50,208 nucleotides of DNA, taken from positions 1 to 50,208 of the forward strand of contig JAVCCI010000034.1 in NCBI GenBank assembly GCA_030765555.1, read 5' to 3'. Of the stretch, positions 19,467 through 43,827 are shown piece after piece. The translations under genes were made by a program, and so were the position numbers. Position 1 is the first letter of the stretch, and each line of letters begins with the position of its first letter. Source of the stretch: Candidatus Kappaea frigidicola. GTDB lineage: Bacteria; Omnitrophota; Gorgyraeia; JAGLLT01. A model generated the notes under the pieces. It was given only the letters and a program-made list of their open reading frames with translations. It had not been told where the DNA came from and searched no databases.

Positions 19467-19488
19467 TATTCAAACTCCTTTTATATAA

Positions 19489-19809: not shown

Positions 19810-19838
19810 TGTTTTTCTCCTTTTTACAATAGACGTAT

Positions 19839-19867
19839 AGAATATCAAAAAAGAAAAAGCTTGTCAA
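19839..19867 (-). promoter_or_regulatory. Sigma70-like promoter of the rplU-rpmA-obg operon
   Basis: TTGACA, 17 nt, TATTCT, with a TGA extended -10. The -35 overlaps the rng stop codon. Confidence 0.55.
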
Positions 19868-21388: not shown

Positions 21389-21416
21389 AAAAAAGACAGG
21401 ATCTAAACCCGTCTTT
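21389..21416 (-). terminator. Rho-independent terminator after pilQ
   Basis: AAAGACGGG-UUUAGAU-CCUGUCUUU with one G-U pair, followed by a run of U. Confidence 0.7.
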
Positions 21417-21442: not shown

Positions 21443-22981
21443 TTAGAAAACTGTTTCCTGTTCAAAGGCAACAGTAGAAACTGAATCAATATGACCATTT
21501 TCCTTTAGTACATGAGGAGTTAAAAATATTAAAAGATCTCTCTTTTCTATTTCTGTACCTCTTTGTGAAAATAAATAACCTAAAATTGGAATATCACCAA
21601 GAAAAGGTATTTTGTTATTAGTATTAACAACTTTATCCTTAATCATACCGCCAATCACCAATGTCTCACCATCTTTGATCATGACTTCTACTTCTGCCTG
21701 CTTCGTAGATATTATTGGCACCTCTGCACCTTCAAATGTAACACTTCCAGTTAAATCACTAACCTCGGGCACGACACTTAATGTTATATAGCCATCTTTA
21801 TTAACTGTGGGAGTTACTGTCATAATTATGCCATACTCTATATATTCCCATCCAGAAACATTCCATCGTCCGGTCTCATCAGAATAGGAATAATTAGCCA
21901 CTGGCCATTTTGTACCTACTGTTATCTTGGCCTCTTTATTATTCAGAGTAGTAATTCTAGGATTTGACAAAACATTTGTATCTGTTCTAGTAGATAAAGC
22001 TTCTAACGTTGCTTGCAAACCAGTAAAATCAAGCGTTCCGTATTGAAAATACTCCTCTTCACCTGTATCTCCAGCAACAGCTGGTAAAGAACTCCATTGT
22101 ATAGCATCCTTACTAGACACAGGTAAATCGTTTTTGATTGCAAAGTCTGAAACAATATCTGTAATTTGACCGCTTGCATCATAGGTATAATCAGCATCTG
22201 GTGTTGGATACAGCCTGCCATCAGTACTCCAGTTAGAAAAAGGAAGAGTCGTTGCCCTTTTAGCACCATCAGCAACAATTTCGGTTTGCCAATCAACACC
22301 TAAGGTTTCATCTTTACCCAAAGTTGTTTCAATAACACGTGCTTCAATTTGAATCTGGGGCGTTCTGCCATCTAATTGCTCAATTACGCTTGCAAGCTTT
22401 TTAATATTAGTTCCTATGTCAGTGACAATAACTTGATTCGTTCTGGCGTCAAATTGAATATTACCACGCGCAGACAACATATCTGCAAGGGAAGTTGTTA
22501 GGCTTTCAGCATCAGCATAACTAAGTGAAAAAAGAGTTGTTTCTAAATCCTCCATAGAAAGATTTTCACGCGTTGTAACCCGAATTATATTGCCATCTTG
22601 CTCGTAAACATATCCTTGAGTTTTCAAAATAATATCTAAAGCCTTATCCCAAGGCACACTTTCTAACTTCATAGTAACCACACCCTGAACTTCTCCTCCA
22701 GCAATAATATTAATACCACTTTTATCAGAAACAATACGCAGAACGTCTTTTATATCTGCATCTTTAAAGTCCATACTAATTTTTTTATCATTATCATTAC
22801 TGTTAGAGTCTGTTTTGTTGCCTAAAATAGAGGATATTTGATTAGCCTCAATCTGCTGCGGCGTAATTTGTTTTGCCTGTGGATCTTCAGCCTTTACTTC
22901 CTGCGCAAGGCAAATTCCACTATAGCACAAAATTATTAAAGCTATAAGAAAACAAGATAGAATACTTTTTTTATTCTTCAT
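21443..22981 (-). CDS. pilQ: Type IV pilus secretin PilQ
   Basis: Signal peptide, a secretin N-domain (DFKDADIKDVLRIVS), and a C-terminal secretin core (NPRITTLNNKEAKITVG ... IPFLGDIPILGYLF). Follows pilMNOP. Confidence 0.85.
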   Translation of the reverse strand: MKNKKSILSCFLIALIILCYSGICLAQEVKAEDPQAKQITPQQIEANQISSILGNKTDSNSNDNDKKISMDFKDADIKDVLRIVSDKSGINIIAGGEVQGVVTMKLESVPWDKALDIILKTQGYVYEQDGNIIRVTTRENLSMEDLETTLFSLSYADAESLTTSLADMLSARGNIQFDARTNQVIVTDIGTNIKKLASVIEQLDGRTPQIQIEARVIETTLGKDETLGVDWQTEIVADGAKRATTLPFSNWSTDGRLYPTPDADYTYDASGQITDIVSDFAIKNDLPVSSKDAIQWSSLPAVAGDTGEEEYFQYGTLDFTGLQATLEALSTRTDTNVLSNPRITTLNNKEAKITVGTKWPVANYSYSDETGRWNVSGWEYIEYGIIMTVTPTVNKDGYITLSVVPEVSDLTGSVTFEGAEVPIISTKQAEVEVMIKDGETLVIGGMIKDKVVNTNNKIPFLGDIPILGYLFSQRGTEIEKRDLLIFLTPHVLKENGHIDSVSTVAFEQETVF

Positions 22982-23384
22982 CGTTAATATTATTTTTTTC
23001 TTCTCTTAATTTAAAAACTTTTCTTTCTCCAAGAACTTCAACTACAGCTCCATCACGCATAATGTCTTTTATAACAAAAAAGTCTGTTTCATCATTAATT
23101 TTCATAATTTGACCATTGATTATTACGGCTGATTCTCCAGTTGGATCATATACAACAGCCTGAAGTGTTATAGAACTGAAATCTACGATAGTTTTAGTGC
23201 TTACGTCTTTTGGTTTTTTTTCAACCTGATCCTTCAAATATGGAGGAACAAAGGGATCCCGCCTCTCATGATTATTATACACGAAATCTGCAGCATATGC
23301 AAAAGTATTTAAATACAATATTGCGAATATAATGTGCAAAAATCCTAAGAATAATCTATTCATTCTCCTGCGGCTCCAAGACAT
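22971..23384 (-). CDS. PilP-like pilus assembly protein
   Basis: 137 aa with a signal/anchor helix, an RDPF motif and a beta-rich C-terminus. Positioned between pilO and pilQ. Start is ambiguous (M1 or M8). Confidence 0.5.
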   Translation of the reverse strand: MSWSRRRMNRLFLGFLHIIFAILYLNTFAYAADFVYNNHERRDPFVPPYLKDQVEKKPKDVSTKTIVDFSSITLQAVVYDPTGESAVIINGQIMKINDETDFFVIKDIMRDGAVVEVLGERKVFKLREEKNNINDEE

Positions 23385-23946
23385 CTAATATATAAGTATA
23401 AACCATTATTTCACCCATATGCTCAAAAGGATTCTTCTTGTCTTCCTCAACCTTAAGATATTCAATCTTCATAAATCTGTCAGCATTTTCAAGTTTACTT
23501 ACAAAAGAACCAATATTATGATAGCCCCCTTTAAGGATTAGCTTAAAAGGAACTGTAACATATAGAGTCTGCTCTTGCCTAACCTCTTGTTTTTTTTCAA
23601 TTTCGAGCAATGTTACGTCGGCAGAAGTAGCAATATTGGATAGATATTGTAATAAGTCCGGGATATCTTTTTCGGTCGGCAATTTTTTTTCATAATAACT
23701 AATATTTTCCTTAAGTTTTTCGATCTTGACTTTTGCTTCCTCAATTTTCTCTCTCTGCTTCTCCATTGAGCCTGCTTTCAATAAAAAAGACTGCTTCTCT
23801 ACAATTTTAGCTTTTAATTCACTAGACATGCTAACCTTAGGAGCTATCGCAATAAAATAAAACATAACCGTGCAAACTATATACGCAGCTATAACCCCGG
23901 CAACTATTTGATATGCTTTATTTTCCTTTAAGTCTTCAAGATTCAT
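23356..23946 (-). CDS. pilO: Type IV pilus assembly protein PilO
   Basis: 196 aa. Single N-terminal TM, a coiled coil, and a ferredoxin-like C-terminus (LKGGYHNIGSFVSKLEN). Synteny. Confidence 0.7.
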   Translation of the reverse strand: MNLEDLKENKAYQIVAGVIAAYIVCTVMFYFIAIAPKVSMSSELKAKIVEKQSFLLKAGSMEKQREKIEEAKVKIEKLKENISYYEKKLPTEKDIPDLLQYLSNIATSADVTLLEIEKKQEVRQEQTLYVTVPFKLILKGGYHNIGSFVSKLENADRFMKIEYLKVEEDKKNPFEHMGEIMVYTYILDVLEPQENE

Positions 23947-24523
23947 CTTTTTTATCCGGTAGATCTTTTTGTTTTAAATGGCAAAAAATAACAAAACTAA
24001 TATGTTCTACATCTTGTATTTTTCTTTTGATAATTTTTAGTTCAACATCGCTGAAATCCTTAAAAAATGATTCATGATACTTAATATTGTTCATAAAATT
24101 TCCAACAATTGCTTCTTCCTTGCCTTCTTTAGAATAAACCTTACCTTCAATAATTAACATACTATTATTTAATTCGAGAGCATTAAGCCAAATACCATCA
24201 GTTAACAGGTCACTCAACTCATTAAGTTTCTGCGAATAATAAATTCTATCTGCCATTAAATAATTTACAACGACTGCTCTTTCTTCTAACGTCTTAAGCT
24301 CTTTTTTATATATTCCATACTCACTTTTTACTTTTAAAATTTTCTGCCATTGACTCTCAAGATTATCTGCTTTAAGCGTTGCTGCAGTCAAACCTTTATT
24401 TGCAATAGCCATCCACATTACAAGCATTGATACAAGAATAACTCCAATAAGGATAAATAACCCCTTTGGCAGTATTACTCTTTGCTTTTTTAAATCATCT
24501 GGAAGTAAATTAATCTTTATCAT
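23936..24523 (-). CDS. pilN: Type IV pilus assembly protein PilN
   Basis: The conserved N-terminal INLLP motif (MIKINLLPDD) followed by a TM helix. Synteny. Confidence 0.7.
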   Translation of the reverse strand: MIKINLLPDDLKKQRVILPKGLFILIGVILVSMLVMWMAIANKGLTAATLKADNLESQWQKILKVKSEYGIYKKELKTLEERAVVVNYLMADRIYYSQKLNELSDLLTDGIWLNALELNNSMLIIEGKVYSKEGKEEAIVGNFMNNIKYHESFFKDFSDVELKIIKRKIQDVEHISFVIFCHLKQKDLPDKKDES

Positions 24524-24526
24524 AAT

Positions 24527-25519
24527 TTATAACTTGCGTAAGGCTAATCCAGTAGCTACAGCAAAATAATCCCGAATAGGACTAATTTTATCTCCTAAAG
24601 ACTTATTACCCAAAATAAGCCTATCTAAAATGCTCCACCTTTTAACCTCTAAATCCATATTCTCAGATAAAAAATTAGCCATATTTTCATTAATGGCTAC
24701 TCCTCCACTAATATATATTTTAGTAACACCTTCCTCATACTGACTTTCATAATAATCAAACGATGATTTAATCTCTATTGCCATTTCTCTCATGGCATTT
24801 AAGCAAATTTCATCTACAGCCTCTTTTTTATCACCGGGATTTTTTTTAAGCTCTTCCGCTTGAGTCAAATCAACTTTAAAATTCTCAGCCAAAACCTCAG
24901 TTACACGCTTACCACCCACTGGAATATTACGAGTAAAATTAAGTAAATCTCCACGAATAATATTCACACTTGTTGCTTCGCTTCCAATATTTAGTAAAGC
25001 AATTGTTTTTTCGCTTTCATCATTATTTAAATTAAAGGCATTAATAAGAGCAAACGAATCTATATCCACAACCCATGGGCATAAGCCCGCTTTTTGGACT
25101 AGTTGAATTTTATCGTTAATACTATCTTTTTTAGCGGCTACTAAAAGAACTCCCATATTATTTTCAGCTTCAGAGATTATCTGACAATCAACAATAACCT
25201 CATTAACATTATAAGGAATATACTTCTCAGCTTCATATTTAATTGCATTTTTAAGATCTGCTTCACTCATTTTTGGCAACTGAATATTGCGGATAATTAC
25301 GGAAGGTCCTTCAATAGAAATGTTAACTTCTTTTTCAGAAATTTTCGCTCGCTTAAAAAGCTGCTTAAGCGCACTTAGCTTATCTTTTTCTTCGGCATTA
25401 AACTTAAGTTCCTCAATAGAAGCTTTAACTAAACTAAACTGCTCTTTAGTCTTAAGGAGTTGCACCACCTTAATCGTTGATGTACCTATGTCTAAACCGA
25501 CAATATTTTCTTTTGTCAT
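24527..25519 (-). CDS. pilM: Type IV pilus assembly ATPase-fold protein PilM
   Basis: Actin-like fold with VGLDIGTSTIKVV and IYISGGVA. 330 aa. Confidence 0.85.
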   Translation of the reverse strand: MTKENIVGLDIGTSTIKVVQLLKTKEQFSLVKASIEELKFNAEEKDKLSALKQLFKRAKISEKEVNISIEGPSVIIRNIQLPKMSEADLKNAIKYEAEKYIPYNVNEVIVDCQIISEAENNMGVLLVAAKKDSINDKIQLVQKAGLCPWVVDIDSFALINAFNLNNDESEKTIALLNIGSEATSVNIIRGDLLNFTRNIPVGGKRVTEVLAENFKVDLTQAEELKKNPGDKKEAVDEICLNAMREMAIEIKSSFDYYESQYEEGVTKIYISGGVAINENMANFLSENMDLEVKRWSILDRLILGNKSLGDKISPIRDYFAVATGLALRKL

Positions 25520-25543
25520 AATATTAATAGTAAGATATACGCC

Positions 25544-25996
25544 CTACTCTAATGGATTTGCTGATGTCATATTACCATTTTGATCAAGTTGAATAACTGA
25601 TTCAACGCCATCACCGTCTAAATCTCCACGAGCAATTATAATATAACTAGTACCTATACCAGAAGCTCCCGCCTGCACTTCATATGAATACCTAATTTGA
25701 CCAACAGGCTTAAAACCAATATCAATCCAACTTTGTGGAACAGCAGTATCTTCCCAGAAAACTCTAGCTGCGCTTGGTACAGTAGCTGGATGCAAAGTAC
25801 ATAACACATAAGATTCATTCTCCATCTCATATACCTCCAGACATCCACGGATCGCCCCTAAATTATGATTAGCCTCAGCTACCTTAGCTCTTAATTGAAA
25901 TCTTTGATAGTTAGGAACGGCAATAGTTACCAAAATACTAATGAGAGCTACTACTACCATAAGCTCTATGAGCGTAAATGACCTCGCCCTGCGCAT
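25544..25996 (-). CDS. Type IV pilin paralog 2 (prepilin, Ser at -1)
   Basis: MRRARS|FTLIELMVVVALISILVTIAVPNY. Paralogous to the upstream pilin, sharing a Cys pair and the GDLDGD...LDQxGN...NPLE tail. ATG start with its own promoter at 26037-26065. Confidence 0.8.
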   Translation of the reverse strand: MRRARSFTLIELMVVVALISILVTIAVPNYQRFQLRAKVAEANHNLGAIRGCLEVYEMENESYVLCTLHPATVPSAARVFWEDTAVPQSWIDIGFKPVGQIRYSYEVQAGASGIGTSYIIIARGDLDGDGVESVIQLDQNGNMTSANPLE

Positions 25997-26036
25997 ATCT
26001 TTTCCCCTTTTTAGTGAATATATCTATATTGATATA

Positions 26037-26065
26037 AATATATCATATATATAAACTTTTGTCAA
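26037..26065 (-). promoter_or_regulatory. Sigma70-like promoter of pilin 2-pilMNOPQ
   Basis: TTGACA, 17 nt, TATATT, with a TGA extended -10. Confidence 0.6.
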
Positions 26066-26152
26066 TTTAAAGTATATTAATAACTACATTACCTAGGTAT
26101 GATCATATATTCTGAAATACAATATATGGTATTTAAGGCATTCCTCACATAT

Positions 26153-26193
26153 AAAAAAAAGAGCCATCTTAAATTTCGTTAAAATGGCTCTTT
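26153..26193 (-). terminator. Rho-independent terminator after pilin 1
   Basis: AGAGCCAU-16 nt loop-AUGGCUCU followed by U8 (A8 at 26153-26160 on the plus strand). Confidence 0.8.
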
Positions 26194-26225
26194 AAAATAC
26201 TCAAACTTGTCAGTCTCAAAGATGT

Positions 26226-26666
26226 CTATTCAAGTGGATTAGTGGATGTTAAGTTACCATCCTGGTCAAGCGTATAGACTGACGTACTTGCATCACCGTC
26301 AAGGTCACCAGTTGCTGTAGCAGCAAATGTAGTACCGCCGTCGGCAACCGTTACAGCATACTGATAATAAATTAGGCCTTTAGGCTCAAATCCTATATCA
26401 GTCCAACCAGCTGAAGTGCTTACCCAAGTAGCTTTAACACCCGCTGGAACTGTAGCAGGATTGGCTCCACAAGCTAAATACACATCATTTTCAGCCTTAT
26501 ATGCTTCTTCGCATGTCCTAATAGCACCCAAGCTAGATTTTGCTTCAGAGGTTTTTGCTCTAAGTTGAAAATTAATATAATTAGGTATTGCGATAGTGGC
26601 TAATAAGGCTATAATTGCGACAACAATCATCATTTCAATAAGTGTAAATCCTCTTCGCCTTTTCAT
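26226..26666 (-). CDS. pilA: Type IV major pilin candidate (prepilin)
   Basis: MKRRRG|[36 protein letters not shown] lies 5 nt before the ATG at 26666. An in-frame upstream ATG at 26684 also has an SD. The gene has a near-consensus promoter and a strong terminator. Confidence 0.85.
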
Positions 26667-26706
26667 CTTATTCACCTCCTTCATTTAGATTACCCTCCTT
26701 TAACCT

Positions 26707-26738
26707 ACTTTCAGTATACCATATGCTCTACTGAAAGT
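26707..26738. promoter_or_regulatory. 10-bp perfect inverted repeat straddling the pilin 1 promoter (candidate operator)
   Basis: actttcagta (26707-26716) and tactgaaagt (26729-26738) are exact reverse complements separated by a 12-nt spacer. One arm abuts the -35 and the other abuts the -10. Confidence 0.4.
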
Positions 26739-26741
26739 CAA
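26713..26741 (-). promoter_or_regulatory. Sigma70-like promoter of pilin 1
   Basis: TTGACT, 17 nt, TATACT, with a TGG extended -10. Confidence 0.65.
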
Positions 26742-26766
26742 ATTACCGCAAGTCTCGTATCTTATT

Positions 26767-27984
26767 TTAACTAAATAAATCAGCCATATTAAATATCGGT
26801 AAATAAAGTGCCAAAACTATTCCTCCAATAACCACTCCCAAAACAACAATAACTAAGGGTTCAATCAGCGAAGTCAAACTTTCCACTGTTGTACTCACTT
26901 CATCATCATAAAAATTTGCTACTTTAACAAGCATTTCTTCCAACGAACCAGTTTGTTCTCCGACCGCCACCATTTTAACAACTAATGGTGGAAATATAGG
27001 ACTCTTGGACAGCGGCTGAGCAATGGTCTCTCCTCCTTTAACGCTCTCAAGAACATCCCTAATTACATTCTCAATAACTCTATTGCCGCATGTTTTTGCC
27101 ACAATATCTAGAGAAGTTAATATTGAAACACCACTTTTTGCAAGCGTTGCCAGAGTTCTTGAAAATCTTGATATGGCAACTTTTTTTATTAATTTCCCAG
27201 CTATTGGTAATTTAAGTATTGATCTATCAATTATTTCCCTTCCCTTGTTAGTTTTTCCAATCATTACAAAACCCACGACCAATACAACCATTGATAATAA
27301 AACCAAAATTAAATATTTTGTTACAATAGCACTTGCAGTCATCAATACTTGTGTTGGCCCAGGAAGATCTGCACCAAAACCTGAATAGATTTCAGCAAAA
27401 GAAGGCACCACACTAACCAGCATAAATATAGTTATTCCTACTACAGCTACCATTATAGTAATTGGATAAACTAAAGCAGCTTTAACTTTCTTTTGAAGCT
27501 TACTACTATCTTCAAAGTATGATGCCATACGCATCAAGATATCATCCAACATACCTGAAGCCTCTCCAGCGGAGATCATATTAATGAATAGACTAGAAAA
27601 GGCTTTAGGATACTTACCTAGGGCCTCAGAAAGACTACTTCCTCCCTCAACTGATTCCTTTACTTTTGTGATAAGAAGCTTTAAAGATTTATTTTCAGAT
27701 TGTTCAGATAAAATCTCTAAGCCCTGAACCAAAGGTAAGCCAGCATTAACCATTGTAGCTAATTGTCTAGAGAATACAGCTAGCTCATCAATAGAAATTT
27801 TTACACTTGATAAAGAGGGCATCAAATTAAAAGAAAAAGAAGATTTTTTAAGAGGAGTAATATTGATTATGATTGAAGCTCTGTCTCTCAATAAGCTTGC
27901 AACAACATCCTGATTCGGAGCTTCAATAGAGCCCGTCAGCGTTTTTCCTTGCTTGTCTTTTATAATATATTTAAATTCAGACAT
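26767..27984 (-). CDS. pilC: Type IV pilus platform protein PilC
   Basis: 405 aa with two GspF/T2SSF repeats and three TM segments. Follows the pilB genes. Confidence 0.9.
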   Translation of the reverse strand: MSEFKYIIKDKQGKTLTGSIEAPNQDVVASLLRDRASIIINITPLKKSSFSFNLMPSLSSVKISIDELAVFSRQLATMVNAGLPLVQGLEILSEQSENKSLKLLITKVKESVEGGSSLSEALGKYPKAFSSLFINMISAGEASGMLDDILMRMASYFEDSSKLQKKVKAALVYPITIMVAVVGITIFMLVSVVPSFAEIYSGFGADLPGPTQVLMTASAIVTKYLILVLLSMVVLVVGFVMIGKTNKGREIIDRSILKLPIAGKLIKKVAISRFSRTLATLAKSGVSILTSLDIVAKTCGNRVIENVIRDVLESVKGGETIAQPLSKSPIFPPLVVKMVAVGEQTGSLEEMLVKVANFYDDEVSTTVESLTSLIEPLVIVVLGVVIGGIVLALYLPIFNMADLFS

Positions 27985-27988
27985 AGTT

Positions 27989-29683
27989 TTATTCAGACGT
28001 TATACGAATAACTTCTTCAACAGTAGTAAGACCCATAAGAAACTTTTGAATTGCATTTTCTCGTAAGGTTTTCATACCTTTAGAACGAGCATATTCCTTT
28101 ATATCATCACTTGATGATCTCTTCAATATCATCTCTCTGATAGTGTCATCTATCTCAAGCACTTCTAACGTACCCATTCTTCCACGATAACCTGTCTGAT
28201 TACAATGCTTACATCCAATTGCCTGATAGCCCATAACATCCTTGTCAGTATTAATATCAAGTTTTTCTAATACCTCTTTTGGAACTTTGTACTGCTGGCG
28301 ACATTCAGAACAGACTTTCCTACATAATCTTTGAGCAACCGTTAATATCAAACTTGAAGATATAAGAAATGGCTCAATGCCCATGTCAATTAAGCGAGTT
28401 ATAGCACCCGCTGCATCATTTGTATGCAAAGTGCTAAAAATCAACAAACCTGTCAGAGAAGATTTAATTGCAATATCTGCAGTCTCAGAATCTCTAATTT
28501 CACCCACCATGATTACATCAGGACTTTGCCTTAAAATCGAACGAAGACCTACGGAAAAAGTAAGGCTAATCTCGGGCTTAACTTGAACTTGAGTTATACC
28601 CTCAACTTGATATTCCACCGGATCTTCGATAGTCATCAAATTAACATCTGGTTTATTAATCCTATTCAATATCGAATAAAGAGTTGTAGATTTACCGGAA
28701 CCAGTCGGACCTGTCACTAAAATCATTCCATAAGGATGGGCAATTGCTCTATTAAACGCCGCTAAAGGCTCAGGTAAAAACCCCAGCTTTTCAAGTCCGA
28801 CGCTCAAATTAGATTTATCTAATGCTCTTAAAACTATTTTTTCACCATATGTAATCGGCAAACAGGAAACTCTAAAATCTATATCTTTCTTTTCGAATTC
28901 AATCTTAAACCTGCCATCCTGTGGCATTCTTCTTTCGGTTATATCCATATTGGACATAATTTTTAAGCGTGCTATTAAAGCATTTTGATATTTTTTAGGA
29001 ACTTCAAAGGCCTCTTGCAATTCACCATCAACACGATATCTAATCCTTAAGATATCTTCATATGGCTCTAAATGAATATCACTAGCTCTTCTTTTTAAGC
29101 CTTCAGTAATTATCTTGTTAACTATATTTATAACTGGAATCTTTTCATCAATTTCCAGTTTTTGAACCTGGCTTCTCGCTGGGCCAATCTCTACATCAAC
29201 ACTTCCACTGGACTCTTGAAGCATATCAACTACTTCAGCACCTACTCCTCCGTAATTACGGCTTATAGCACTTTTCATTTCGCTTTCAGATACTATAATT
29301 GGCTTTATTGTCATATTAGTAAGAGTCTTTAAATCATCTAAAGCAAAGATATTTAAAGGATCAGACATAGCTAATGTTAAATTATTACCAATTTTAGACA
29401 CTGGTAAAACATAATAATGTCCAGCTACTTGCTGAGGAATTATTTTTAAAATCTCTGGTGAGATTTTCATCTTAGATAGCTTAATGACCGGCATATCTAA
29501 TTGTTTCGCCAGACAACCCATAAGATGTTCTTCGCTTATCACTCCTTGATGAATAAGAATTTTACTTAAGTGTCCTCCTTCATTCTTTTGGACCTGAATG
29601 GCTTTATCAAGCGCTTCTTGCGATATCAGCTGACTATCAACTAATATCTTTTTTAATTTATCTTCAAAATTTGTACCTGTCAT
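27989..29683 (-). CDS. pilB: Type IV pilus assembly ATPase PilB/GspE family, paralog 2
   Basis: T2SSE_N domain, Walker A GPTGSGKST, Asp/His boxes, and tetra-Cys CSEC...CKHC. 564 aa. Confidence 0.9.
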   Translation of the reverse strand: MTGTNFEDKLKKILVDSQLISQEALDKAIQVQKNEGGHLSKILIHQGVISEEHLMGCLAKQLDMPVIKLSKMKISPEILKIIPQQVAGHYYVLPVSKIGNNLTLAMSDPLNIFALDDLKTLTNMTIKPIIVSESEMKSAISRNYGGVGAEVVDMLQESSGSVDVEIGPARSQVQKLEIDEKIPVINIVNKIITEGLKRRASDIHLEPYEDILRIRYRVDGELQEAFEVPKKYQNALIARLKIMSNMDITERRMPQDGRFKIEFEKKDIDFRVSCLPITYGEKIVLRALDKSNLSVGLEKLGFLPEPLAAFNRAIAHPYGMILVTGPTGSGKSTTLYSILNRINKPDVNLMTIEDPVEYQVEGITQVQVKPEISLTFSVGLRSILRQSPDVIMVGEIRDSETADIAIKSSLTGLLIFSTLHTNDAAGAITRLIDMGIEPFLISSSLILTVAQRLCRKVCSECRQQYKVPKEVLEKLDINTDKDVMGYQAIGCKHCNQTGYRGRMGTLEVLEIDDTIREMILKRSSSDDIKEYARSKGMKTLRENAIQKFLMGLTTVEEVIRITSE

Positions 29684-29686
29684 CTT

Positions 29687-31414: not shown

Positions 31415-31422
31415 TATTTATT

Positions 31423-31938
31423 TTATTCTTTCTTTTCCCTATCAGCACTATCAACTTGTCTGGGAGCATTACCAAAGTTGAATTTTGAAACATCCGTTTG
31501 TTCTGCTTGTTGATGTTTGCCATAAAAACGATCCAGGGCTCTACTTATATCACTTGCAGTACTAACAAAGGGAGTAACCTTACACCCCGTTAAATATTCG
31601 ATATCCCTAATGGCAAAGTCGTTCAAAGGATCAGCCATTACAGCAGTTAAGATATTACCAATTTTATCAATTGGTACTAAAAAGTACTGCCTAGCTACAT
31701 GTTCGGGCACCATTTTAACTGCTTCTGGATTAACATCATAATTTTCCAGCGGCATATAAGGAAAACCATATTGATCTGCCAAAGACATAACAAGATCTTG
31801 CTCACTCATGAATTTAAGTTCAATTAGAATTTGACCAATAAGACCGCCCTTTTCTTTTTGATACTTCAAAGCGTTCTCTAATTGATCAGAAGTAATTATT
31901 TTTTTATCAATTAGAAGTTGGCCAAGTTGTTTTTTCAT
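31423..31938 (-). CDS. Stand-alone T2SSE_N / MshEN-like domain protein (no ATPase domain)
   Basis: 171 aa that aligns by eye with the N-termini of both PilB paralogs (KIGNILTAVMADPLNDFAIRDIEYLTG vs KIGNTLTIAMADPLNVFAIDDIKTLT). Tandem 24-residue xLGxxLI...L...L..Q motifs are separated by a 5-residue spacer. Confidence 0.75.
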   Translation of the reverse strand: MKKQLGQLLIDKKIITSDQLENALKYQKEKGGLIGQILIELKFMSEQDLVMSLADQYGFPYMPLENYDVNPEAVKMVPEHVARQYFLVPIDKIGNILTAVMADPLNDFAIRDIEYLTGCKVTPFVSTASDISRALDRFYGKHQQAEQTDVSKFNFGNAPRQVDSADREKKE

Positions 31939-31956
31939 AATCTTATCCCCTTATAC

Positions 31957-34900
31957 TCAACCATTATTATTCTGATGGCGTTCAATAGACTCATATGCTT
32001 TTTTTGCTTTCCTTCTGACTTCTTGATTACTATATTCCATATATGATTTCAAACTAGGTAAACAAGATGGGTCTTTAATAAAACCCATTATTTCAATAAT
32101 ATTGCTAATCTCTTCAGCTTCTTTAGTTGCTGAGATTCTATATCTTAGTATCTCAGAAGTTTTCTTAGGATATTTTTTTAAAAAAACACTAACATATTGA
32201 CGGTTAAAATAAGCATCAAAGGGATCTATCTTCTTATTAACAGACAAAATAACATCTAGAAGAGGTTCAACTGTAGCCTCTTGTGCTAATTCTAAAATAT
32301 GCATAGCACCAGTCAATATTTTTTTATCTACCTTACCACCAAATATAGCAACTACATTTTCCAAGGCTTGCTTATCAGTTGCTGTTTTTAATACTTTCTG
32401 AAGTAATGCTTTGTGGGGCTCTGATAAATCATTCTTCTCATCTAGAATTTTTTTTACTTTATCAAGCAATTGCCCTGCATTAACAAAACTTTTATTGTTT
32501 AAATACCCGGCAACCAACTTAATCAAGGCTTTAATGTATTCTTCATAAATTTCTGGATCTTGCTCCTGCTCCATTACACCTAAAATAAAATCTACGATAA
32601 ATTTCAGAGTTTTAATTGCCTCATTAGAAGCCAATATATCAATAACACTCATTAAATTAGATGAGATATAACCTCTTACTTGTTTTTTTTCTGATTTTAA
32701 ATTGTTTAATATCTTCCCAAGCACACCTATAACTTCACCTTCTCTAGAATCAGCTAACAAATCATAAAAAACTTGCTTTGTGCTTTCTAAAACATCCTGA
32801 TCAAGAAAAGCTTCAGACCCCAGCTCTTTAATTTTTACAATTTTCTCATCCGAACTTAATTCTCTCCACAAATCAGGCTTTAATAGGTTGAGAATTTGCT
32901 CATCCGATAGGCCACTTTTATGGAAATCCGGCTTAATCAAATTCAACACTTTGCCCCTTTTCTCTTCCTCAGGAAGAAAGCGTCGAACATAATCCTTGAG
33001 ATCATCAAAAGTTAGCTTTTGTTCCTTAAAACGTACGGCTTCTTGTTTTAAGAAAGTTGAAATTTCATCATCAGACATATTGATAAAAGCATTACTTACA
33101 TCTTCAGGAGAAATACCTATGTTTTTTAAATTTTTCTGGCGCAAAATTTTAGAACGTAGATCAGGCTGCAAACTTAAAATAAACTTAGGAAGATTTTCCT
33201 CATATTTACGTTTAGCTTCTTCATCCTCAGTAGATACCTCTTCATTAATTTTCTTTAAACCCTGCCCAACCATATTTACTTTTTCATCTAAATCCATCTT
33301 GCTGTAATCAACATCCTGTGAACTTCCTTCATTTTCACTAGGACCCTCTGATATAATCTTTGCTAAATAATTAGGGTCTTGACTAAATAAATCCAACATA
33401 GACACTTGAGATCCAGCATCCGCTTGTGGCCTTCCTAACATATAATTAATTAACATAACCTCATTAATTTTCCTCTTTTTATCCTGAGTTCTACCAAGCT
33501 GTTTTTTAAGCATTTTTTCATAATGAACCATGTTGACTTTTATCTTATTAATATTATTAGCATTAAATATTTCTGGCAGGCTGCCTAAATCTTCAATTTC
33601 AGAAGTTTTTTTAGATAAAGATGAAAATAATGTATCCAGCTCTCTCAAAACTATTCCTTTTTCAAAAGAAAGTGATTGTATTCTGTAGTCTTTAAGAAGT
33701 TTTCCCAAGCTGTCCGCGATTGTATTTTTTATTTCGCGGCTTTTCAATTCTCTGCCATTAACCAAGAGAAAACCTTCAACTTCTGAAAAAGAAATAACAC
33801 CATATTTATTAAATAATTGAGCCAGTAAATTATAAAATTCATTAGTTGAATCAGACCTCACCTTACTACCGGCTGGATAAAGGCTAAAATTAACAATTCC
33901 AGTTTTAAGAGATACTATTAATTGTGAAACAATACCAAAATCTTCATTTTTTAATGGTTCTACTGCTAATGCTAATTCTTCCTCTTCTTCATCTTTTAGA
34001 CCCGCCAATTCCTGAGATAACACTTGTTGTAAATATTGATTAGCTTCAACTGGATTAAAGCTTTTATCCGCTTTAGCTTGAGCTATCTTAGAATAATTAT
34101 TAGCTTTAGTGCTATCCTTTGCTTTCTTAAAATGATATGCCAAAAGACTTGCAATAGCTTGGGGATTAGCCGAACTTGTTTCTTCTGCAATTTGGGCAAA
34201 CTTTCCATGAAGTTTATCACGCTCTTCTTCCTTAATCTGAGCATAAACAACTTCCCAGAGTAATTTATTCCTAAAAGCATGTATGACTTGACCATCAGCT
34301 TCTCTTGATTCTATTAGTCTTTCATTAACAGCTCTATCTATCATCTCCTCAATGTAGCCAGGATTCTTACCGATCATTTTTTGCAAAGGCTCTAAAGTGA
34401 ACTCTTGTCCAAGGATTGCCGCATTAGACAAGAACTGCCTAGTCTCCTCATCCATATTCTTAACTTTTTGCTCAAGTATCTGCTTAATACCCGAAGAAAG
34501 ATCTTCATCCTTAACTTCCTTGTGCTGCCAAGATCCATCTTTAAAAAAGACCACTTCCTTTTCAACAAAATGTTTTAATGATTCTTCAATGAAATAAGGA
34601 TTACCCTCTGTTCTAGTGCAAAACTTCTGAAGCAATTCTGGGTCAAACTGCATCCCCTCAAATATTGCCATCACCATAGACTGGGTTTCTTCAGAATTAA
34701 ACGGTTTTAATTCAATATTGATAGTATTTTCATCTTTTTGCAATTTCTCAAATTGCTCTTTTAGTTCAGATTCATGCTCTAATCTTCTTTGTAATTCAGA
34801 TGGCCTTAAAGCCCCCATAAAAGCAATTTTTTTATCTTTACGATTAACCAACATGTAATTTATCAAAGAAGCTGTGGCCATATCGACCCACTGAAAATTA

Positions 34901-35982
34901 TCGAAACTAACTAAAAATTGTTTAACATCAGATATCTTACATAATAAATTTACTAAACCATTGAATAGGTTAAATCTAGAATTTTTATCATCAACTTTAT
35001 TTATATCAATTTTTTTTGAAGTGTATTCTGATAGGGCAGGCTCTAAATCGAAAAGCTGCGCAACTTCTTCATCCGCCAAGGAATCCATAATCACTTTAGC
35101 ATCACCTTTAAGCGATTTTAAAAATCTTTCAAGATTAGCTGATAAAACCTGATATGGTTGATCGGAAATTGCCTCTGTGCATCTAGCCGTAAAACACAAA
35201 CTTTCTTTTTCGAAAGCATATTTTCTGATCTCCGATTGCAATCGTGTCTTACCTAAACCTGCCTCTGCAGATAAAAAAACGGCCTTTGAAATACTCTCAT
35301 TAAAACATACATCTAAAACTTGCTTTATTTTAGATAATTCTACTGATCTAGCTATAATTCTCTGGCATGGAAAAATTTCTAAAATTTTATTTTTATTTAA
35401 AATGTCTTCAGGAACATCAGCAAAAACAGAAACCTGATTACGTCCACTACGCTTTGACAAATATAAGGCTTCATCAGCTCTATATATTAATTTTTCAGCG
35501 TCCTGAGCATCGCGCGGAAAAACTGCCATTCCTAAACTCAGCGTTAAGGTTAAATCCGGCTGCCCCTCATCACCAACAAACGAATATTGAGAAACTTTAC
35601 CAATGAGTCTCTTAGCAATTTTTAGAGAATCACCTTCTTCTGCTGTAGGAAGCATAACAACGAATTCATCTCCTGCATACCTAATAATCTCATCTGAATC
35701 TCTAAAACTTTCTCTTAGCAAGTTAGATACTTCCGTCAAAACCTTGTCCCCTCTTTGATGTCCATATGTATCATTGACATCTTTAAATTTATCAACGTCA
35801 ATCATAAATAATGATAGAGGATAATCGCTCCTCACAGCCTGCCTGATAATCTCCGGCAAACGCTTATTCAGATATCTGCGATTATGTAGTTTGGTTAAAT
35901 CGTCTTTATATATTAACTCTTGCGCTTCAAGCGCATCATGCTCTATCTGTGATTGATCTTGTTTGCGACGTTCTTCCTGCAT
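31957..35982 (-). CDS. Giant multidomain signalling protein: GGDEF (AGDEF active site plus RxxD I-site), AAA_16/STAND P-loop NTPase, helical repeats, C-terminal HEAT-like repeats
   Basis: aa 25-187 form a GGDEF domain (RDSDEIIRYAGDEFVV). aa 205-470 form a STAND/AAA_16-like module (AEAGLGKTRL Walker A, LVSFDNFQWVD Walker B, TEGNPYFIEE). The C-terminus carries a PSCLPSLKSYMEYSNQEVRRKA HEAT/PBS-lyase-like repeat. Confidence 0.8.
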   Translation of the reverse strand: MQEERRKQDQSQIEHDALEAQELIYKDDLTKLHNRRYLNKRLPEIIRQAVRSDYPLSLFMIDVDKFKDVNDTYGHQRGDKVLTEVSNLLRESFRDSDEIIRYAGDEFVVMLPTAEEGDSLKIAKRLIGKVSQYSFVGDEGQPDLTLTLSLGMAVFPRDAQDAEKLIYRADEALYLSKRSGRNQVSVFADVPEDILNKNKILEIFPCQRIIARSVELSKIKQVLDVCFNESISKAVFLSAEAGLGKTRLQSEIRKYAFEKESLCFTARCTEAISDQPYQVLSANLERFLKSLKGDAKVIMDSLADEEVAQLFDLEPALSEYTSKKIDINKVDDKNSRFNLFNGLVNLLCKISDVKQFLVSFDNFQWVDMATASLINYMLVNRKDKKIAFMGALRPSELQRRLEHESELKEQFEKLQKDENTINIELKPFNSEETQSMVMAIFEGMQFDPELLQKFCTRTEGNPYFIEESLKHFVEKEVVFFKDGSWQHKEVKDEDLSSGIKQILEQKVKNMDEETRQFLSNAAILGQEFTLEPLQKMIGKNPGYIEEMIDRAVNERLIESREADGQVIHAFRNKLLWEVVYAQIKEEERDKLHGKFAQIAEETSSANPQAIASLLAYHFKKAKDSTKANNYSKIAQAKADKSFNPVEANQYLQQVLSQELAGLKDEEEEELALAVEPLKNEDFGIVSQLIVSLKTGIVNFSLYPAGSKVRSDSTNEFYNLLAQLFNKYGVISFSEVEGFLLVNGRELKSREIKNTIADSLGKLLKDYRIQSLSFEKGIVLRELDTLFSSLSKKTSEIEDLGSLPEIFNANNINKIKVNMVHYEKMLKKQLGRTQDKKRKINEVMLINYMLGRPQADAGSQVSMLDLFSQDPNYLAKIISEGPSENEGSSQDVDYSKMDLDEKVNMVGQGLKKINEEVSTEDEEAKRKYEENLPKFILSLQPDLRSKILRQKNLKNIGISPEDVSNAFINMSDDEISTFLKQEAVRFKEQKLTFDDLKDYVRRFLPEEEKRGKVLNLIKPDFHKSGLSDEQILNLLKPDLWRELSSDEKIVKIKELGSEAFLDQDVLESTKQVFYDLLADSREGEVIGVLGKILNNLKSEKKQVRGYISSNLMSVIDILASNEAIKTLKFIVDFILGVMEQEQDPEIYEEYIKALIKLVAGYLNNKSFVNAGQLLDKVKKILDEKNDLSEPHKALLQKVLKTATDKQALENVVAIFGGKVDKKILTGAMHILELAQEATVEPLLDVILSVNKKIDPFDAYFNRQYVSVFLKKYPKKTSEILRYRISATKEAEEISNIIEIMGFIKDPSCLPSLKSYMEYSNQEVRRKAKKAYESIERHQNNNG

Positions 35983-35990
35983 TTATAATA

Positions 35991-37067
35991 CTAAACTCCT
36001 GATTTCAACATTCTTTTTAAATCATCTATTTCACTTGTTCTGGCAATTGCATCTTCGTAAGTTATTTTTTGGGTTTGATATAATTCATACAAACTTTGAT
36101 TCATTGTCTTCATACCTTCTTTTTGCGAAGTTTGAATTACAGAATATATTTGATGAACCTTCCGGTCTCTTACCAAGCTTCTTACAGCAGCTGTTAATTT
36201 CAAAACCTCTAATGCCAATACTCTACCAGTAGTTTCCGTTTTAGGAACTAATTGCTGAGCTAAAACAGCATTTAGAACAAATGATAACTGCACCCTTGCC
36301 TGTTCCTGCTGGTGTTGAGGAAATACGTCAATAATCCTGTTAATTGTCTGAGCGGAATCTGATGTATGCAAAGTAGCTAAAACGAGATGTCCTGTTTCAG
36401 CAGCATTCAAAGCCAATTCTATACTTTCTAAATCTCTCATTTCACCAACTAGAATCACATCGGGATCCTGCCTAAGAACATGCTTAAGAGCTGTTGCAAA
36501 AGAATGCGTATCATGACCAACTTCTCGTTGATCAATTACAGCTTTTTTACCCTCATATATATACTCAATAGGATCTTCAATCGTTACAATATGAACCGGC
36601 CTATCATTATTAATGAACTCAACCATTGAAGCTAATGTAGTTGATTTTCCACTACCAGTAGCTCCAGTCACTAATACTAACCCCTTATTTTTCTTACACA
36701 AATCCACCAAAACATTTACCGGTAATCCACATTCTTCAAAAGACATTATATGGGCTGGCAGCACCCTAAGGGCCATACCTAAATTACCTCTTTGATAAAA
36801 CATATTTGCTCTAAAACGAGCCTCATCCCCTAACCCAAAAGACATATCAAGCTCTAAATCTTTTTCTAATTTTTGCTTTTGATCCTCACTAAGCAAGGTA
36901 TAAATCAAAGATTTAATTTCTTCATTTGAAAGCTTATCGTACTCACATGGGATTAGTTTTTCATCAATTCTTATGTGCGGGGGGGAACCTACGGATAAAT
37001 GTAAATCTGACGCACCTTTTTTTATAAGTAAATTTAAGAGTTCTTTTAAATCTGTTAACTTTGCCAA
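35991..37067 (-). CDS. pilT: Type IV pilus retraction ATPase PilT
   Basis: 358 aa. GASDLHLSVGSPP, Walker A GATGSGKST, and no N-terminal T2SSE_N domain. TTG start codon 5 nt after SD AAGGAGGT. Confidence 0.9.
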   Translation of the reverse strand: MAKLTDLKELLNLLIKKGASDLHLSVGSPPHIRIDEKLIPCEYDKLSNEEIKSLIYTLLSEDQKQKLEKDLELDMSFGLGDEARFRANMFYQRGNLGMALRVLPAHIMSFEECGLPVNVLVDLCKKNKGLVLVTGATGSGKSTTLASMVEFINNDRPVHIVTIEDPIEYIYEGKKAVIDQREVGHDTHSFATALKHVLRQDPDVILVGEMRDLESIELALNAAETGHLVLATLHTSDSAQTINRIIDVFPQHQQEQARVQLSFVLNAVLAQQLVPKTETTGRVLALEVLKLTAAVRSLVRDRKVHQIYSVIQTSQKEGMKTMNQSLYELYQTQKITYEDAIARTSEIDDLKRMLKSGV

Positions 37068-37099
37068 TTTTAACCTCCTTTGAAAAAAAGACGAGCCAC

Positions 37100-38524
37100 T
37101 TAAGCGTATATTTTATTGCCTTCTTCAGACTGACCTTTTGTTAAAAGCATTTTTGCCTTACTAATCAGCTCTTCGCCCCTCATACCATCAATCGGATTTG
37201 ATGTTACCGCACCACTAATACTAATCTTTTTATTAGGCATTTCCTCTTGATTAGCAAATTCAAATTCCTCGATCATTTGCCTAACTTTATCAGCTATCAG
37301 ATGCGCCTCGCGCTTATTCCTTTCTGGAAGTATCATTGCAAATTGACTATGATCAAAGCGGGCTACTTTATCAATTTGGTCAGCGCTAGTTTTCAAGATT
37401 GAAGCAACTCTTTTTAAAATATCTTCAGCAGAGGCTTTTCCAAATTTATCTTCATACAAATCAAAATTATCAATATCAAACAAGATAAATGAACAAGGTC
37501 TTTGATAGGTTATCGATCTCTCAATTTCTTCATTCAGTCTCTCTTTAGCAAATTTAACATTAAAGAGACCGGTTAGCTCATCACTCACGGATAATTCTTC
37601 TGTTCTTTTCATTAGCCAATTATTTTCTAAGGCAATGGAAACCTGCTTACTAAATACACTCATTAGATCAATGTCATCATCTGTAAATGAAAAACTTTCT
37701 TTATTGTTTCCTAATATTAAAGCACATTGAACTTCACCGTGAAGAATAACGGGAAATTCAATCACATTCTTTAGTGCTAATTTATTTGATAATACCTTAG
37801 TAACATTTGTAATTTTGTGCTGAGCATCAAATATGAGAGTTTCTCGCTGCTTAGATATCCTTGACAAAACCCCCTCGGAAAAATCTTTTTCAAGACTTTC
37901 AATCTCTTCAGGCTTGAGATTACTAGTCGCCTTAAGCCTAACAGTTGCATTCTTATCATCAAAAATAGCCAGAAAACTTTTCTCACAATCCATAACGTCT
38001 GGTAAACGCTCGATAACAGTTTGAAGGATTATATTTAAATCCTTGGCGCTTGACATAATACTACTAACCTGAAAAAGCGTCGAAAGAGCGGTCATCTTTT
38101 GATTTATTTCAAGATTAATACCCCTAATCCTCTCTTCATATCCCTTTAAAGTATCAACGTTACTTGTAAGCCTAGAAGCCATCTTATTAATCGAATAGCT
38201 CAAATCTCCAATTTCATCCTCCCTGTTAACTGGAATTTCCTGGAAATCATTGCCATCATTATAAAGCCTAACCTTTTCAGCTATTTCAATAACTGGCTCT
38301 ACAATGCTCTTAGCTATCAACAAACCCAAAACAGTTATTACGATAGTTATTAAGAGTATTAAGGATATATCTCCCATAACAAAAAATTCATTTTTATAAA
38401 CATATACGCTAATAATTACACCGCAGACTAATAGCGGCACGACAGACATGAGGCTAAAGGCAAGAATAAGTTTGTACCTTAAACCCTTAGGCATAAGAGA
38501 TATGCTCTTAAATATATTACCCAT
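37100..38524 (-). CDS. Membrane sensor: 2 TM, HAMP, GAF, degenerate GGDEF domain
   Basis: HAMP (EDEIGDLSYSINKMASRL), a GAF-like middle region, and a GGDEF-fold C-terminus. The signature is replaced by DHSQF (37340-37354) and the I-site position reads DQID. Confidence 0.75.
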   Translation of the reverse strand: MGNIFKSISLMPKGLRYKLILAFSLMSVVPLLVCGVIISVYVYKNEFFVMGDISLILLITIVITVLGLLIAKSIVEPVIEIAEKVRLYNDGNDFQEIPVNREDEIGDLSYSINKMASRLTSNVDTLKGYEERIRGINLEINQKMTALSTLFQVSSIMSSAKDLNIILQTVIERLPDVMDCEKSFLAIFDDKNATVRLKATSNLKPEEIESLEKDFSEGVLSRISKQRETLIFDAQHKITNVTKVLSNKLALKNVIEFPVILHGEVQCALILGNNKESFSFTDDDIDLMSVFSKQVSIALENNWLMKRTEELSVSDELTGLFNVKFAKERLNEEIERSITYQRPCSFILFDIDNFDLYEDKFGKASAEDILKRVASILKTSADQIDKVARFDHSQFAMILPERNKREAHLIADKVRQMIEEFEFANQEEMPNKKISISGAVTSNPIDGMRGEELISKAKMLLTKGQSEEGNKIYA

Positions 38525-38583
38525 TTTAATTCCTCCCTGAAAAAGGTAAGTCTATATACGTCAAACAGTTAATGCGTATTTAA

Positions 38584-38612
38584 AGTATACAATATAAAGT
38601 ATTAAGAGTCAA
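38584..38612 (-). promoter_or_regulatory. Sigma70-like promoter of the sensor-pilT-...-pilC operon
   Basis: TTGACT, 17 nt, TATACT. Located between the rodA stop and the sensor gene. Confidence 0.55.
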
Positions 38613-39704: not shown

Positions 39705-39707
39705 TCT

Positions 39708-41435: not shown

Positions 41436-41438
41436 AAT

Positions 41439-42691: not shown

Positions 42692-42702
42692 ATTCCATTA
42701 TC

Positions 42703-43770: not shown

Positions 43771-43797
43771 TTTTTCCCTGCCTTTACTCGCTTTAAA

Positions 43798-43827
43798 ATT
43801 ATAACAAAAAGGGGTGTTAAATGTCAA
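43798..43827 (-). promoter_or_regulatory. Consensus sigma70 promoter of the mreBCD-mrdA-rodA operon
   Basis: TTGACA, 18 nt, TATAAT, with a TGT extended -10. Confidence 0.65.

Follow-up and report, generated by a model that had tools for sequence, protein, structure and literature searches.

Putative c-di-GMP signalling genes, including a stand-alone MshEN protein, among the type IVa pilus motor genes of an Omnitrophota bacterium

The extension ATPases of several type IV pili carry their own receptor for cyclic diguanylate (c-di-GMP). In MshE, which drives the MSHA pilus of Vibrio cholerae, and in Myxococcus PilB, Clostridium perfringens PilB2 and Thermus PilF, this receptor is the MshEN domain, two 24-residue motifs joined by a 5-residue spacer. 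As published, the binding unit comprises two repeats of (R/K/L)LGxx(L/V/I)(L/V/I)xxG(L/V/I)(L/V/I)xxxxLxxxLxxQ with a 5-residue joiner, in which the guanine is hydrogen-bonded by the backbone amide of the position-3 glycine (PMC5013675; PMC11731258). In V. cholerae MshE the substitutions G11L, G11I and G40I each abolish c-di-GMP binding, and XpsE, a non-binder, has both G11V and G40L (PMC5013675). The GSPII-B domain of Thermus PilF owes its very high affinity to a motif II that begins with a hydrophobic residue (PMC11731258). Here we describe a type IV pilus gene block in a stretch of 50,208 nucleotides from Candidatus Kappaea frigidicola, phylum Omnitrophota (assembly GCA_030765555.1, contig JAVCCI010000034.1, positions 1 to 50,208), referred to below as the window. 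The output machine is of the same type as in MshE and the c-di-GMP-binding PilBs, a type IV pilus extension ATPase. In those systems, however, MshEN is fused to the ATPase and binds in cis, whereas here the fused copies lack the glycines, the intact MshEN domain is a separate protein of 150-180 amino acids (aa), and two PilB paralogs are adjacent. The locus encodes the type IVa pilus of this Omnitrophota bacterium, probably with a local c-di-GMP signalling module set among the motor genes. What is new is a clean split in one residue: the free MshEN protein has the glycine at position 3, and the Omnitrophota PilBs do not.

Two other pilus systems invite comparison. In the FimX-PilZ-PilB system of Xanthomonas and Pseudomonas, as proposed here, a separate c-di-GMP sensor acts on the N-domain of a non-binding PilB. 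The receptor there is FimX, a degenerate GGDEF-EAL protein that works through a non-binding PilZ, whereas here it would be MshEN itself; neither PilZ nor EAL domains are found in the window among open reading frames (ORFs) of at least 100 aa. Acinetobacter baylyi resembles the window in having two extension-type ATPases, PilB and TfpB, in one pilus system (PMC11656802). Here both paralogs are PilB-like and adjacent, and both fall below the cut-off of the TfpB model. The review gives no link between TfpB and c-di-GMP (PMC11656802).

The nearest published idea is a remark on PilZ in a 2023 preprint. West-Roberts et al. noted small PilZ genes that follow giant genes encoding GGDEF domains in Omnitrophota (10.1101/2023.11.21.568195). 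Phylum and logic are the same, and those pairs lie near genes resembling those of type II secretion or type IV pili and near Rotamase_2 genes; one locus described below (L005) matches this pattern, with a large protein, PilZ and Rotamase_2. The preprint's proteins run to tens of thousands of residues and use PilZ as the receptor, whereas the protein discussed here has 1341 residues, is paired with MshEN and is encoded within a type IVa pilus ATPase block. The main survey of Omnitrophota found type IVa pili in nearly all classes and does not mention c-di-GMP (PMC10066038). Literature searches on Omnitrophota pili and c-di-GMP, on stand-alone MshEN and on GGDEF proteins of Velamenicoccus or Omnitrophica returned no description of the module, and searches on GGDEF with STAND or AAA_16 found no paper on a GGDEF-STAND protein.

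STAND NTPases with an N-terminal nucleotide cyclase as effector combine an AAA_16 core with TPR, WD40 or HEAT repeats, as in MalT-like proteins and mycobacterial cyclase fusions. The 1341-aa protein has the same layout of effector, P-loop STAND core and helical repeat sensor. It differs in that its effector is a GGDEF domain, with the signature AGDEF, and in having an additional alpha/beta domain without a fold match in the PDB.

Domains were assigned by profile searches with Pfam and NCBIfam, which bear out the domain calls of a preliminary description of this DNA made from its sequence. In the direction of transcription, the part of the block that holds the signalling and motor genes is as follows.

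37100..38524, minus strand: membrane sensor with HAMP (25.7 bits), GAF_2 (46 bits) and GGDEF (100 bits) domains by Pfam
35991..37067, minus strand: PilT retraction ATPase, PilT/PilU family TIGR01420 (475 bits, cut-off 319)
31957..35982, minus strand: 1341-aa GGDEF-STAND-HEAT protein, GGDEF and AAA_16 by Pfam, called the giant below
31423..31938, minus strand: stand-alone MshEN protein of 171 aa, predicted c-di-GMP receptor, Pfam MshEN (PF05157) 74.3 bits
29687..31414, minus strand: PilB paralog 1 (PilB1), 575 aa, MshEN and T2SSE domains
27989..29683, minus strand: PilB paralog 2 (PilB2), 564 aa, MshEN and T2SSE domains
26767..27984, minus strand: PilC platform protein, Pfam T2SSF 219 bits

From gene content, gene order, their conservation across relatives and the state of the motifs, all of which are read directly, we infer a circuit, that is, a cyclase activity, a ligand, a target for the MshEN protein and a sign of regulation. 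The giant would be a STAND-type signalling NTPase, whose alpha/beta domain and ARM/HEAT solenoid would take up a signal, probably a protein partner. Nucleotide-dependent oligomerisation would then bring its N-terminal GGDEF (AGDEF) domains together so that c-di-GMP is made locally, and an RxxD I-site would cap the output. The c-di-GMP would be read by the 171-aa MshEN protein encoded by the adjacent gene, not by PilB1 or PilB2, and the loaded MshEN protein would act in trans on PilB1, PilB2 and PilC to license or tune pilus assembly. PilT would supply retraction, and the HAMP-GAF-degenerate-GGDEF membrane protein would be a non-catalytic input or scaffold. We hold this scheme as a whole, from STAND cyclase through free MshEN to the two PilBs and PilC, with moderate confidence. 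Reception of c-di-GMP would thus appear to have shifted away from the extension ATPases, to a protein that acts in trans. More tentative is the narrower suggestion that free MshEN is the sole c-di-GMP input to a two-ATPase motor and is charged locally by a STAND cyclase, which would oligomerise once its novel alpha/beta domain and HEAT sensor pick up a cue, for example contact with a host cell.

The stand-alone MshEN protein scores 64.1 bits against the c-di-GMP motif model NF053729 (cut-off 38) over model positions 1-53, and its sequence matches in the PDB are 5HTL (MshE) and the N-domains of PilF and PilB.

31771..31929, minus strand: predicted 53-residue c-di-GMP-binding unit, residues 4-56, consisting of QLGQLLIDKKIITSDQLENALKYQ, the spacer KEKGG and LIGQILIELKFMSEQDLVMSLADQ

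The window copy has Gly3 and Gln24 in both motifs, the leucine clusters and the 5-residue spacer, and begins motif II with L, which the published set allows. A regular expression could score 114 of the 120 homologues closest to it. Gly3 and Gln24 are present in both motifs of all 114, and motif II starts with L in every one, a change that goes with very high affinity in the GSPII-B domain of Thermus PilF; motif I starts with Q in 110, and position 10 is G in 81 (motif I) and 93 (motif II). The copies found within pilus loci, 10 of 10, agree in Gly3, Gln24 and the spacer length.

The N-domains of the extension ATPases differ at the decisive position. In PilB1 position 3 is V in motif I and R in motif II; in PilB2 it is K and S. 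Glycine is found there in neither motif of any of the 17 PilB N-domains from the loci, nor in any of 116 Omnitrophota PilB homologues from the database, in which position 3 is occupied by T, V, I, N or K (motif I) or by S or R (motif II). The preliminary description had spoken of three MshEN-like domains; the motifs do not support treating them as equivalent receptors. Both PilB N-domains lack the position-3 glycine in both motifs, and only the detached MshEN looks like a classical c-di-GMP binder.

Some features of these domains weigh against the proposed division of labour. The window copy opens motif I with Q, which is not among the published R/K/L, and has K in place of the turn glycine at position 10 of each motif. 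The PilB N-domains retain R1, L2, L17 and L21, pass NF053729 as well (45.2 bits for PilB1 and 48.7 for PilB2, cut-off 38) and may still bind a nucleotide. Because they keep the fold and most motif residues and pass this model, their loss of c-di-GMP binding is something we infer from the Vibrio mutants rather than a result. The Q and K residues of the window copy would also suit a ligand-independent adaptor or decoy. Such a protein would be a detached PilB N1 domain, docking on PilM or PilC or capping PilB hexamers, and the block's GGDEF proteins would signal to other targets. PilB N1 domains are thought to touch the inner-membrane platform (review PMC11656802), and in one relative (L020) a PilB without MshEN directly follows the free MshEN gene, like a split PilB. 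However, L2, G3, L17, L21 and Q24 of both motifs are invariant in the scored homologues, and the 5-residue spacer is kept in 113 of the 114, whereas this set has drifted in the PilB N-domains. That is the pattern expected of purifying selection on a binding site. Cyclase and phosphodiesterase genes also recur beside free MshEN, and we regard a ligand-free adaptor as improbable.

Across the phylum the stand-alone MshEN protein is 58-60% identical, against 22-30% for the giant, the stronger conservation that is expected of a core component. Free MshEN proteins apparently form two subfamilies, a KQLG type encoded before pilB and an LLGQ type encoded after the giant; the locus L016 has both. In some (P0130-P0141), of 204-221 aa, the N-subdomain is duplicated, giving four 24-residue motifs, and these could bind two c-di-GMP molecules.

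Gene neighbourhoods were read from contigs that encode homologues of the giant. The order of the window, mreBCD-pbp2-rodA, sensor, PilT, giant, MshEN-only, PilB, PilB, PilC and pilins, is found again where the giant is 50% (L012/L013), 29% (L014/L015) or 30% (L108) identical to that of the window, and in L012 and L014/L015 the block continues into pilM-pilQ. The closest relatives, L001 (87%) and L002 (79%), have the same order as far as their contigs reach, and the contig of L004 (55%) shows no more than the sensor, PilT and the first part of the giant. Where the giant is 22-27% identical, gene order has changed, with the giant and MshEN-only pair still beside two pilB genes and pilC. The rearranged orders, and that of L104, are these.

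L016: sensor, MshEN, PilB, PilB, REC-GGDEF, REC-HD-GYP, giant, MshEN, PilC
L018 and L019: PilB, PilB, giant, MshEN, PilC
L020 (1.8-Mb Omnitrophota contig, CP070807.1): giant, MshEN, PilB without N-domain, PilB, PilC
L104: sensor, MshEN, PilB, PilB, REC-HD-GYP, PilC, with giant and PilT absent

The giant is followed directly by the MshEN-only gene, at a spacing of -1 to 73 nt, in the window, L001, L012, L014, L016, L018, L019, L020 and L108, nine lineages over which identity of the giant falls from 87% to 22%. It might be argued that the signalling genes landed among the pilus genes by chance, without any functional tie, since members of the giant's family also occur in unrelated surroundings in some Omnitrophota and in other phyla. 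Adjacency is nevertheless kept, with tight or overlapping junctions, in at least 9 lineages that have diverged to 22-30% identity. This synteny effectively excludes chance juxtaposition, which we consider highly improbable. The preliminary description would have been undone by a neighbourhood not conserved in relatives; the block instead recurs in at least nine lineages, down to 22-27% identity of the giant. Its view of a c-di-GMP-type module built into the ATPase block is likewise upheld. Relatives carry REC-GGDEF and REC-HD-GYP genes there, and free MshEN keeps the binding residues.

These comparisons separate a conserved core, comprising the sensor, free MshEN, two PilBs and PilC, from variable inserts, nearly all of which are c-di-GMP enzymes, with PilT added in the clade of the window. 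PilT is missing from the block in L016, L018, L019, L020 and L104 and present only in the window-like clade. Additional c-di-GMP enzymes lie in the block of L016 (REC-GGDEF and REC-HD-GYP) and of L104 (REC-HD-GYP). The commonest MshEN-only form, that of the L104 arrangement, has 149 aa and is 58-60% identical to the window copy. It must be set against the proposed circuit that L104, the most abundant Omnitrophota form, has the MshEN-PilB-PilB core without the giant, that members of the giant's family occur without pilus genes nearby in L021 (Desulfatibacillaceae), L023 (Planctomycetota), L022, L024, L026 and L109, and that no phosphodiesterase domain (EAL or HD-GYP) was found in window ORFs of at least 100 aa. 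Because the L104 form has none and the family occurs apart from pilus genes, the giant is an optional input and not a defining part. The term dedicated, which had been applied to this cyclase, therefore does not hold for pili in general, members of its family in Desulfatibacillaceae, Planctomycetota and other Omnitrophota being encoded away from pilus genes. The idea of a self-contained extension/retraction switch survives in part: the core is linked to the extension ATPases and the platform and not to retraction, and the claim is overstated, because PilT and the giant are optional and the window has no phosphodiesterase. What remains is a genuine arrangement, conserved throughout the phylum, that would be a variant form of c-di-GMP control over type IV pili.

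In L005 (L005:3633-9339) a giant homologue of 1148 aa whose GGDEF signature is canonical is followed by an overlapping 133-aa PilZ-only gene and then by two PpiC/SurA-type rotamase genes (Rotamase_2). This is a swap of receptor type, PilZ for MshEN. In L020 (L020:14038-17514) the gene after free MshEN encodes a PilB-type ATPase of 420 aa without MshEN, and the next PilB lacks the four-helix N-subdomain. These PilBs resemble split or eroded forms and are relevant to the origin of free MshEN genes.

The giant is predicted to be a diguanylate cyclase controlled by oligomerisation. Its parts are as follows.

35434..35907, minus strand: GGDEF domain, residues 26-183, Pfam 148 bits, signature RYAGDEF
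34840..35355, minus strand: AAA_16 STAND NTPase core, residues 210-381, Pfam 47.9 bits (cut-off 32.6), TIGR03903 STAND region E 5.7e-34
33526..33948, minus strand: alpha/beta domain of 140 residues, about 679-819, without fold match, defined from alignments and AlphaFold2
31960..33288, minus strand: C-terminal ARM/HEAT-like alpha-solenoid, residues about 899-1341, from AlphaFold2 and Foldseek

The AAA_16 core thus stands between an N-terminal GGDEF domain and a C-terminal ARM/HEAT solenoid, as in a STAND NTPase, and its Walker A motif, GLGKT, is intact. GGDEF cyclases work as dimers, so that a layout of effector, STAND core and repeats would suit activation driven by oligomerisation. In the active-site signature RYAGDEF an Ala replaces the first Gly; this Ala is kept in 11 of 12 aligned family members, those of other phyla included, the exception being L005 with GGDEF. 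The alignment also shows HNRR, DVDKFKDVND and the K/R of ...SKRSGRN to be retained. We take HNRR, DVDKFKxxND and SKRSGRN to have the metal- or base-binding, substrate and transition-state roles of their counterparts in PleD and WspR. The I-site RDSD (RxxD) lies five residues before AGDEF, the canonical distance; it is present in the clade of the window and lost in L018, L019, L005 and L021.

The C-terminal half was modelled with AlphaFold2 (residues 640-1341, 27 sequences) at a mean predicted local distance difference test score (pLDDT) of 80.6. The solenoid matched armadillo and HEAT proteins of the PDB in Foldseek at E 6e-6 to 1e-4. HEAT had been named in the preliminary description, and the call stands for the family and the fold, with HEAT_2 significant in homologues and a solenoid in the model, whereas the Pfam match in the window protein is weak (E 0.019). 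Apart from those of the GGDEF and STAND parts, the protein's invariant residues (L-Y-P and an Asn) all lie in the alpha/beta domain. Modelled alone it gave a pLDDT of 90.7 and a predicted template modelling score (pTM) of 0.85, and a Foldseek search of the PDB gave nothing significant (best E 0.54). It may be an undescribed sensor domain common to the whole GGDEF-STAND-HEAT family.

This family is large, with 632 database matches at E <=1e-5 among 8000 candidates scored, and its top-scoring members are full-length GGDEF-AAA_16(-HEAT) proteins. A metagenome scan with the alignment of the 1341-aa protein selected patterns that were generic GGDEF motifs, and 78 of its 80 loci were ordinary GGDEF proteins; screening of the 80 with hidden Markov models found only two STAND-type relatives, neither of them linked to a pilus.

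Three points speak against an active cyclase of this kind. The giant carries AGDEF and not GGDEF; the AGDEF of P. aeruginosa NbdA is, in at least one account, regarded as degenerate; and Walker B of the STAND core, SFDNF, reads D-N in the clade of the window, against D-D in most relatives. The giant could therefore be inactive, a c-di-GMP or GTP receptor and scaffold that organises the ATPases through its I-site and STAND oligomer, with other cyclases supplying the c-di-GMP. The non-canonical signature is joined here by an RxxD I-site kept in the pilus-linked clade nearest the window, by the ARM/HEAT solenoid, a typical protein-binding scaffold, and by the additional, canonical REC-GGDEF protein encoded beside the giant in L016. 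However, an AGDEF site is described as active in VCA0965 of V. cholerae (PMC3974145). The other catalytic residues are kept throughout the family, and the members without pilus genes, from Desulfatibacillaceae, Planctomycetota and other Omnitrophota, also have the AGDEF site. In L018, L019, L005 and L021 the I-site is gone while AGDEF is kept in all but L005, which has GGDEF; this points to selection on the active site over the I-site. We think it unlikely that the giant is merely a receptor.

The sensor has two hydrophobic segments ahead of HAMP, as read from its sequence, and is predicted to be anchored in the membrane. Its GGDEF domain is degenerate, with FDHSQF at the signature, DQID at the RxxD I-site and no NRR motif. 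Four orthologs show the same kind of motif loss in alignment, and that of L104 retains RxxD. In L012, L014, L016, L104 and L108 too the block opens with the sensor gene, whose place there is conserved. Roles as a cyclase or as a PelD-like I-site receptor were rejected, the window copy having neither signature nor RxxD; a non-catalytic input or scaffold is as much as its sequence suggests.

The remainder of the pilus machinery lies downstream of pilC.

26226..26684, minus strand: pilin 1, prepilin, from profile matches
25544..25996, minus strand: pilin 2, prepilin and paralog of pilin 1, from profile matches
24527..25519, minus strand: pilM, Pfam
23936..24523, minus strand: pilN, Pfam
23356..23946, minus strand: pilO, Pfam
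22971..23384, minus strand: pilP-like gene, weak PilP/T2SSB-like match
21443..22981, minus strand: secretin pilQ, Pfam

The presence of PilB, PilT, PilC, PilM, PilN, PilO, PilQ and a prepilin of the G|FTLIE type identifies type IVa machinery. In the earlier assignment of this run as PilMNOPQ, the PilM, PilN, PilO and secretin PilQ genes are confirmed by Pfam and PilP is weakly supported. PilT has the Walker A motif GATGSGKST, Walker B DPDVILVGEMRD and AVRSLVRD. Read from their sequences, PilB1 and PilB2 both retain intact Walker A and Walker B motifs and a Cys4 zinc site, and both look like working ATPases. Identity of either paralog with TfpB was rejected, the scores against NF053534 being 424.2 and 458.2 bits at a cut-off of 850. 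PilC scores about 406-408 bits against the NCBIfam PilC models (cut-off 700) and 390.6 bits against the GspF model (cut-off 424), under the cut-off in each case.

The true start of pilin 1 is likely the ATG at 26666, which gives MKRRRG|FTLIEMM and has an AAGGAGG ribosome-binding site just upstream. In pilin 2 position -1 of the prepilin cleavage site is Ser in place of the usual Gly (RRARS|FTLIEL). About 17 kb from the main cluster, three consecutive ORFs on the minus strand (4479-4967, 3238-4482 and 2743-3234) have hydrophobic, prepilin-like N-termini (…AFSLVEV…, …SFTIIEV… and …GQILISMMV…); the 414-aa product of 3238-4482 has DUF4114 at its C-terminus. The genes at 2743-4967 resemble minor pilins or a tip adhesin. 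Four proteins of about 1005-1010 aa found in the homologue searches (P0241, P0243, P0255 and P0286) have very high PilB-profile scores and many P-loop Pfam matches; they may be fused or duplicated PilB-type ATPases, and their N-termini lack the c-di-GMP motif.

The closest homologues of the window genes are in metagenome-assembled genomes of Candidatus Omnitrophota; the top single match, at 87% identity, bears the label "uncultured Planctomycetia". Exact copies of the proteins are present in JGI, ENA and Logan assemblies. The G+C content of the window is 33-36%. All ORFs assigned as genes in the whole 50-kb window (1-50208) are on the minus strand, and GC skew across it is strong and constant, about -0.13 to -0.30. 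An Rfam search of the window gave no tRNA or other family at the gathering score. The 5′ neighbour of the block is mreB-mreC-mreD-pbp2-rodA (38625-43854) and the 3′ neighbour is RNase G, L21 and Obg (18271-21363). The mreB-mreC-mreD-pbp2-rodA genes lie directly upstream of the pilus block in the window and also in the distant Omnitrophota L012, L016, L104 and L108, a conserved linkage between cell-shape and pilus genes.

The following transcription signals were located.

38584..38612, minus strand: promoter-like site before the sensor gene, in the gap of 100 nt after rodA, TTGACT-17-TATACT, consensus match only
26713..26741, minus strand: promoter-like site before pilin 1, TTGACT-17-TATACT with extended TG, consensus match only
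26037..26065, minus strand: promoter-like site before pilin 2, TTGACA-17-TATATT, 11/12 matches, with TG, consensus match only
26158..26193, minus strand: terminator-like hairpin 3′ of pilin 1, 15-bp stem followed by a T-run
21392..21416, minus strand: terminator-like hairpin 3′ of pilQ, from the hairpin scan

From the sensor gene to pilC the intergenic gaps, taken from the gene coordinates, are 32, 8, 18, 8, 3 and 4 nt, and no terminator-like site was found in them. With gaps of 3-32 nt and no such site, it is plausible that this part of the block is one transcript. The hairpins after pilin 1 and pilQ are the two strongest of the region, and three of the best sigma-70-like matches lie in three intergenic gaps. 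Because the promoter-like matches of the region total 74, against 69.6 in shuffled sequence and thus without excess, the three sites remain consensus matches only. When recomputed, the gene calls, six gaps, three promoter-like sites and two terminators of the preliminary description were all found at the positions it gave. Its remark that no pilD or PilZ gene is visible in the window also agrees with a domain search of ORFs of at least 100 aa, in which Peptidase_A24 (PilD), PilZ, EAL and HD-GYP were absent; PilD may be encoded elsewhere in the genome. A c-di-GMP riboswitch upstream of the pilin genes was rejected, Rfam giving only chance-level matches in 25400-26900.

Omnitrophota are uncultured, ultra-small bacteria, and to our knowledge nothing is known of the control of their pili. 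Their type IVa pili are believed to attach them to host or prey cells (PMC10066038). The locus described here offers a concrete and testable circuit for that control. Its predicted receptor is small and soluble and should be easy to purify, and sequence gives an unusually clear prediction, namely that free MshEN binds c-di-GMP and that the PilB N-domains do not. As a natural experiment with MshEN in trans, it could clarify the poorly understood N1 domain of PilB in type IV pilus systems. It also points to a large, unstudied GGDEF-STAND-HEAT family with a conserved AGDEF site and a domain without a fold match. If the more tentative reading with a cue such as host contact is true, the giant would be the first STAND-activated diguanylate cyclase, and predatory or symbiotic nanobacteria would possess a circuit for the contact-triggered deployment of pili.

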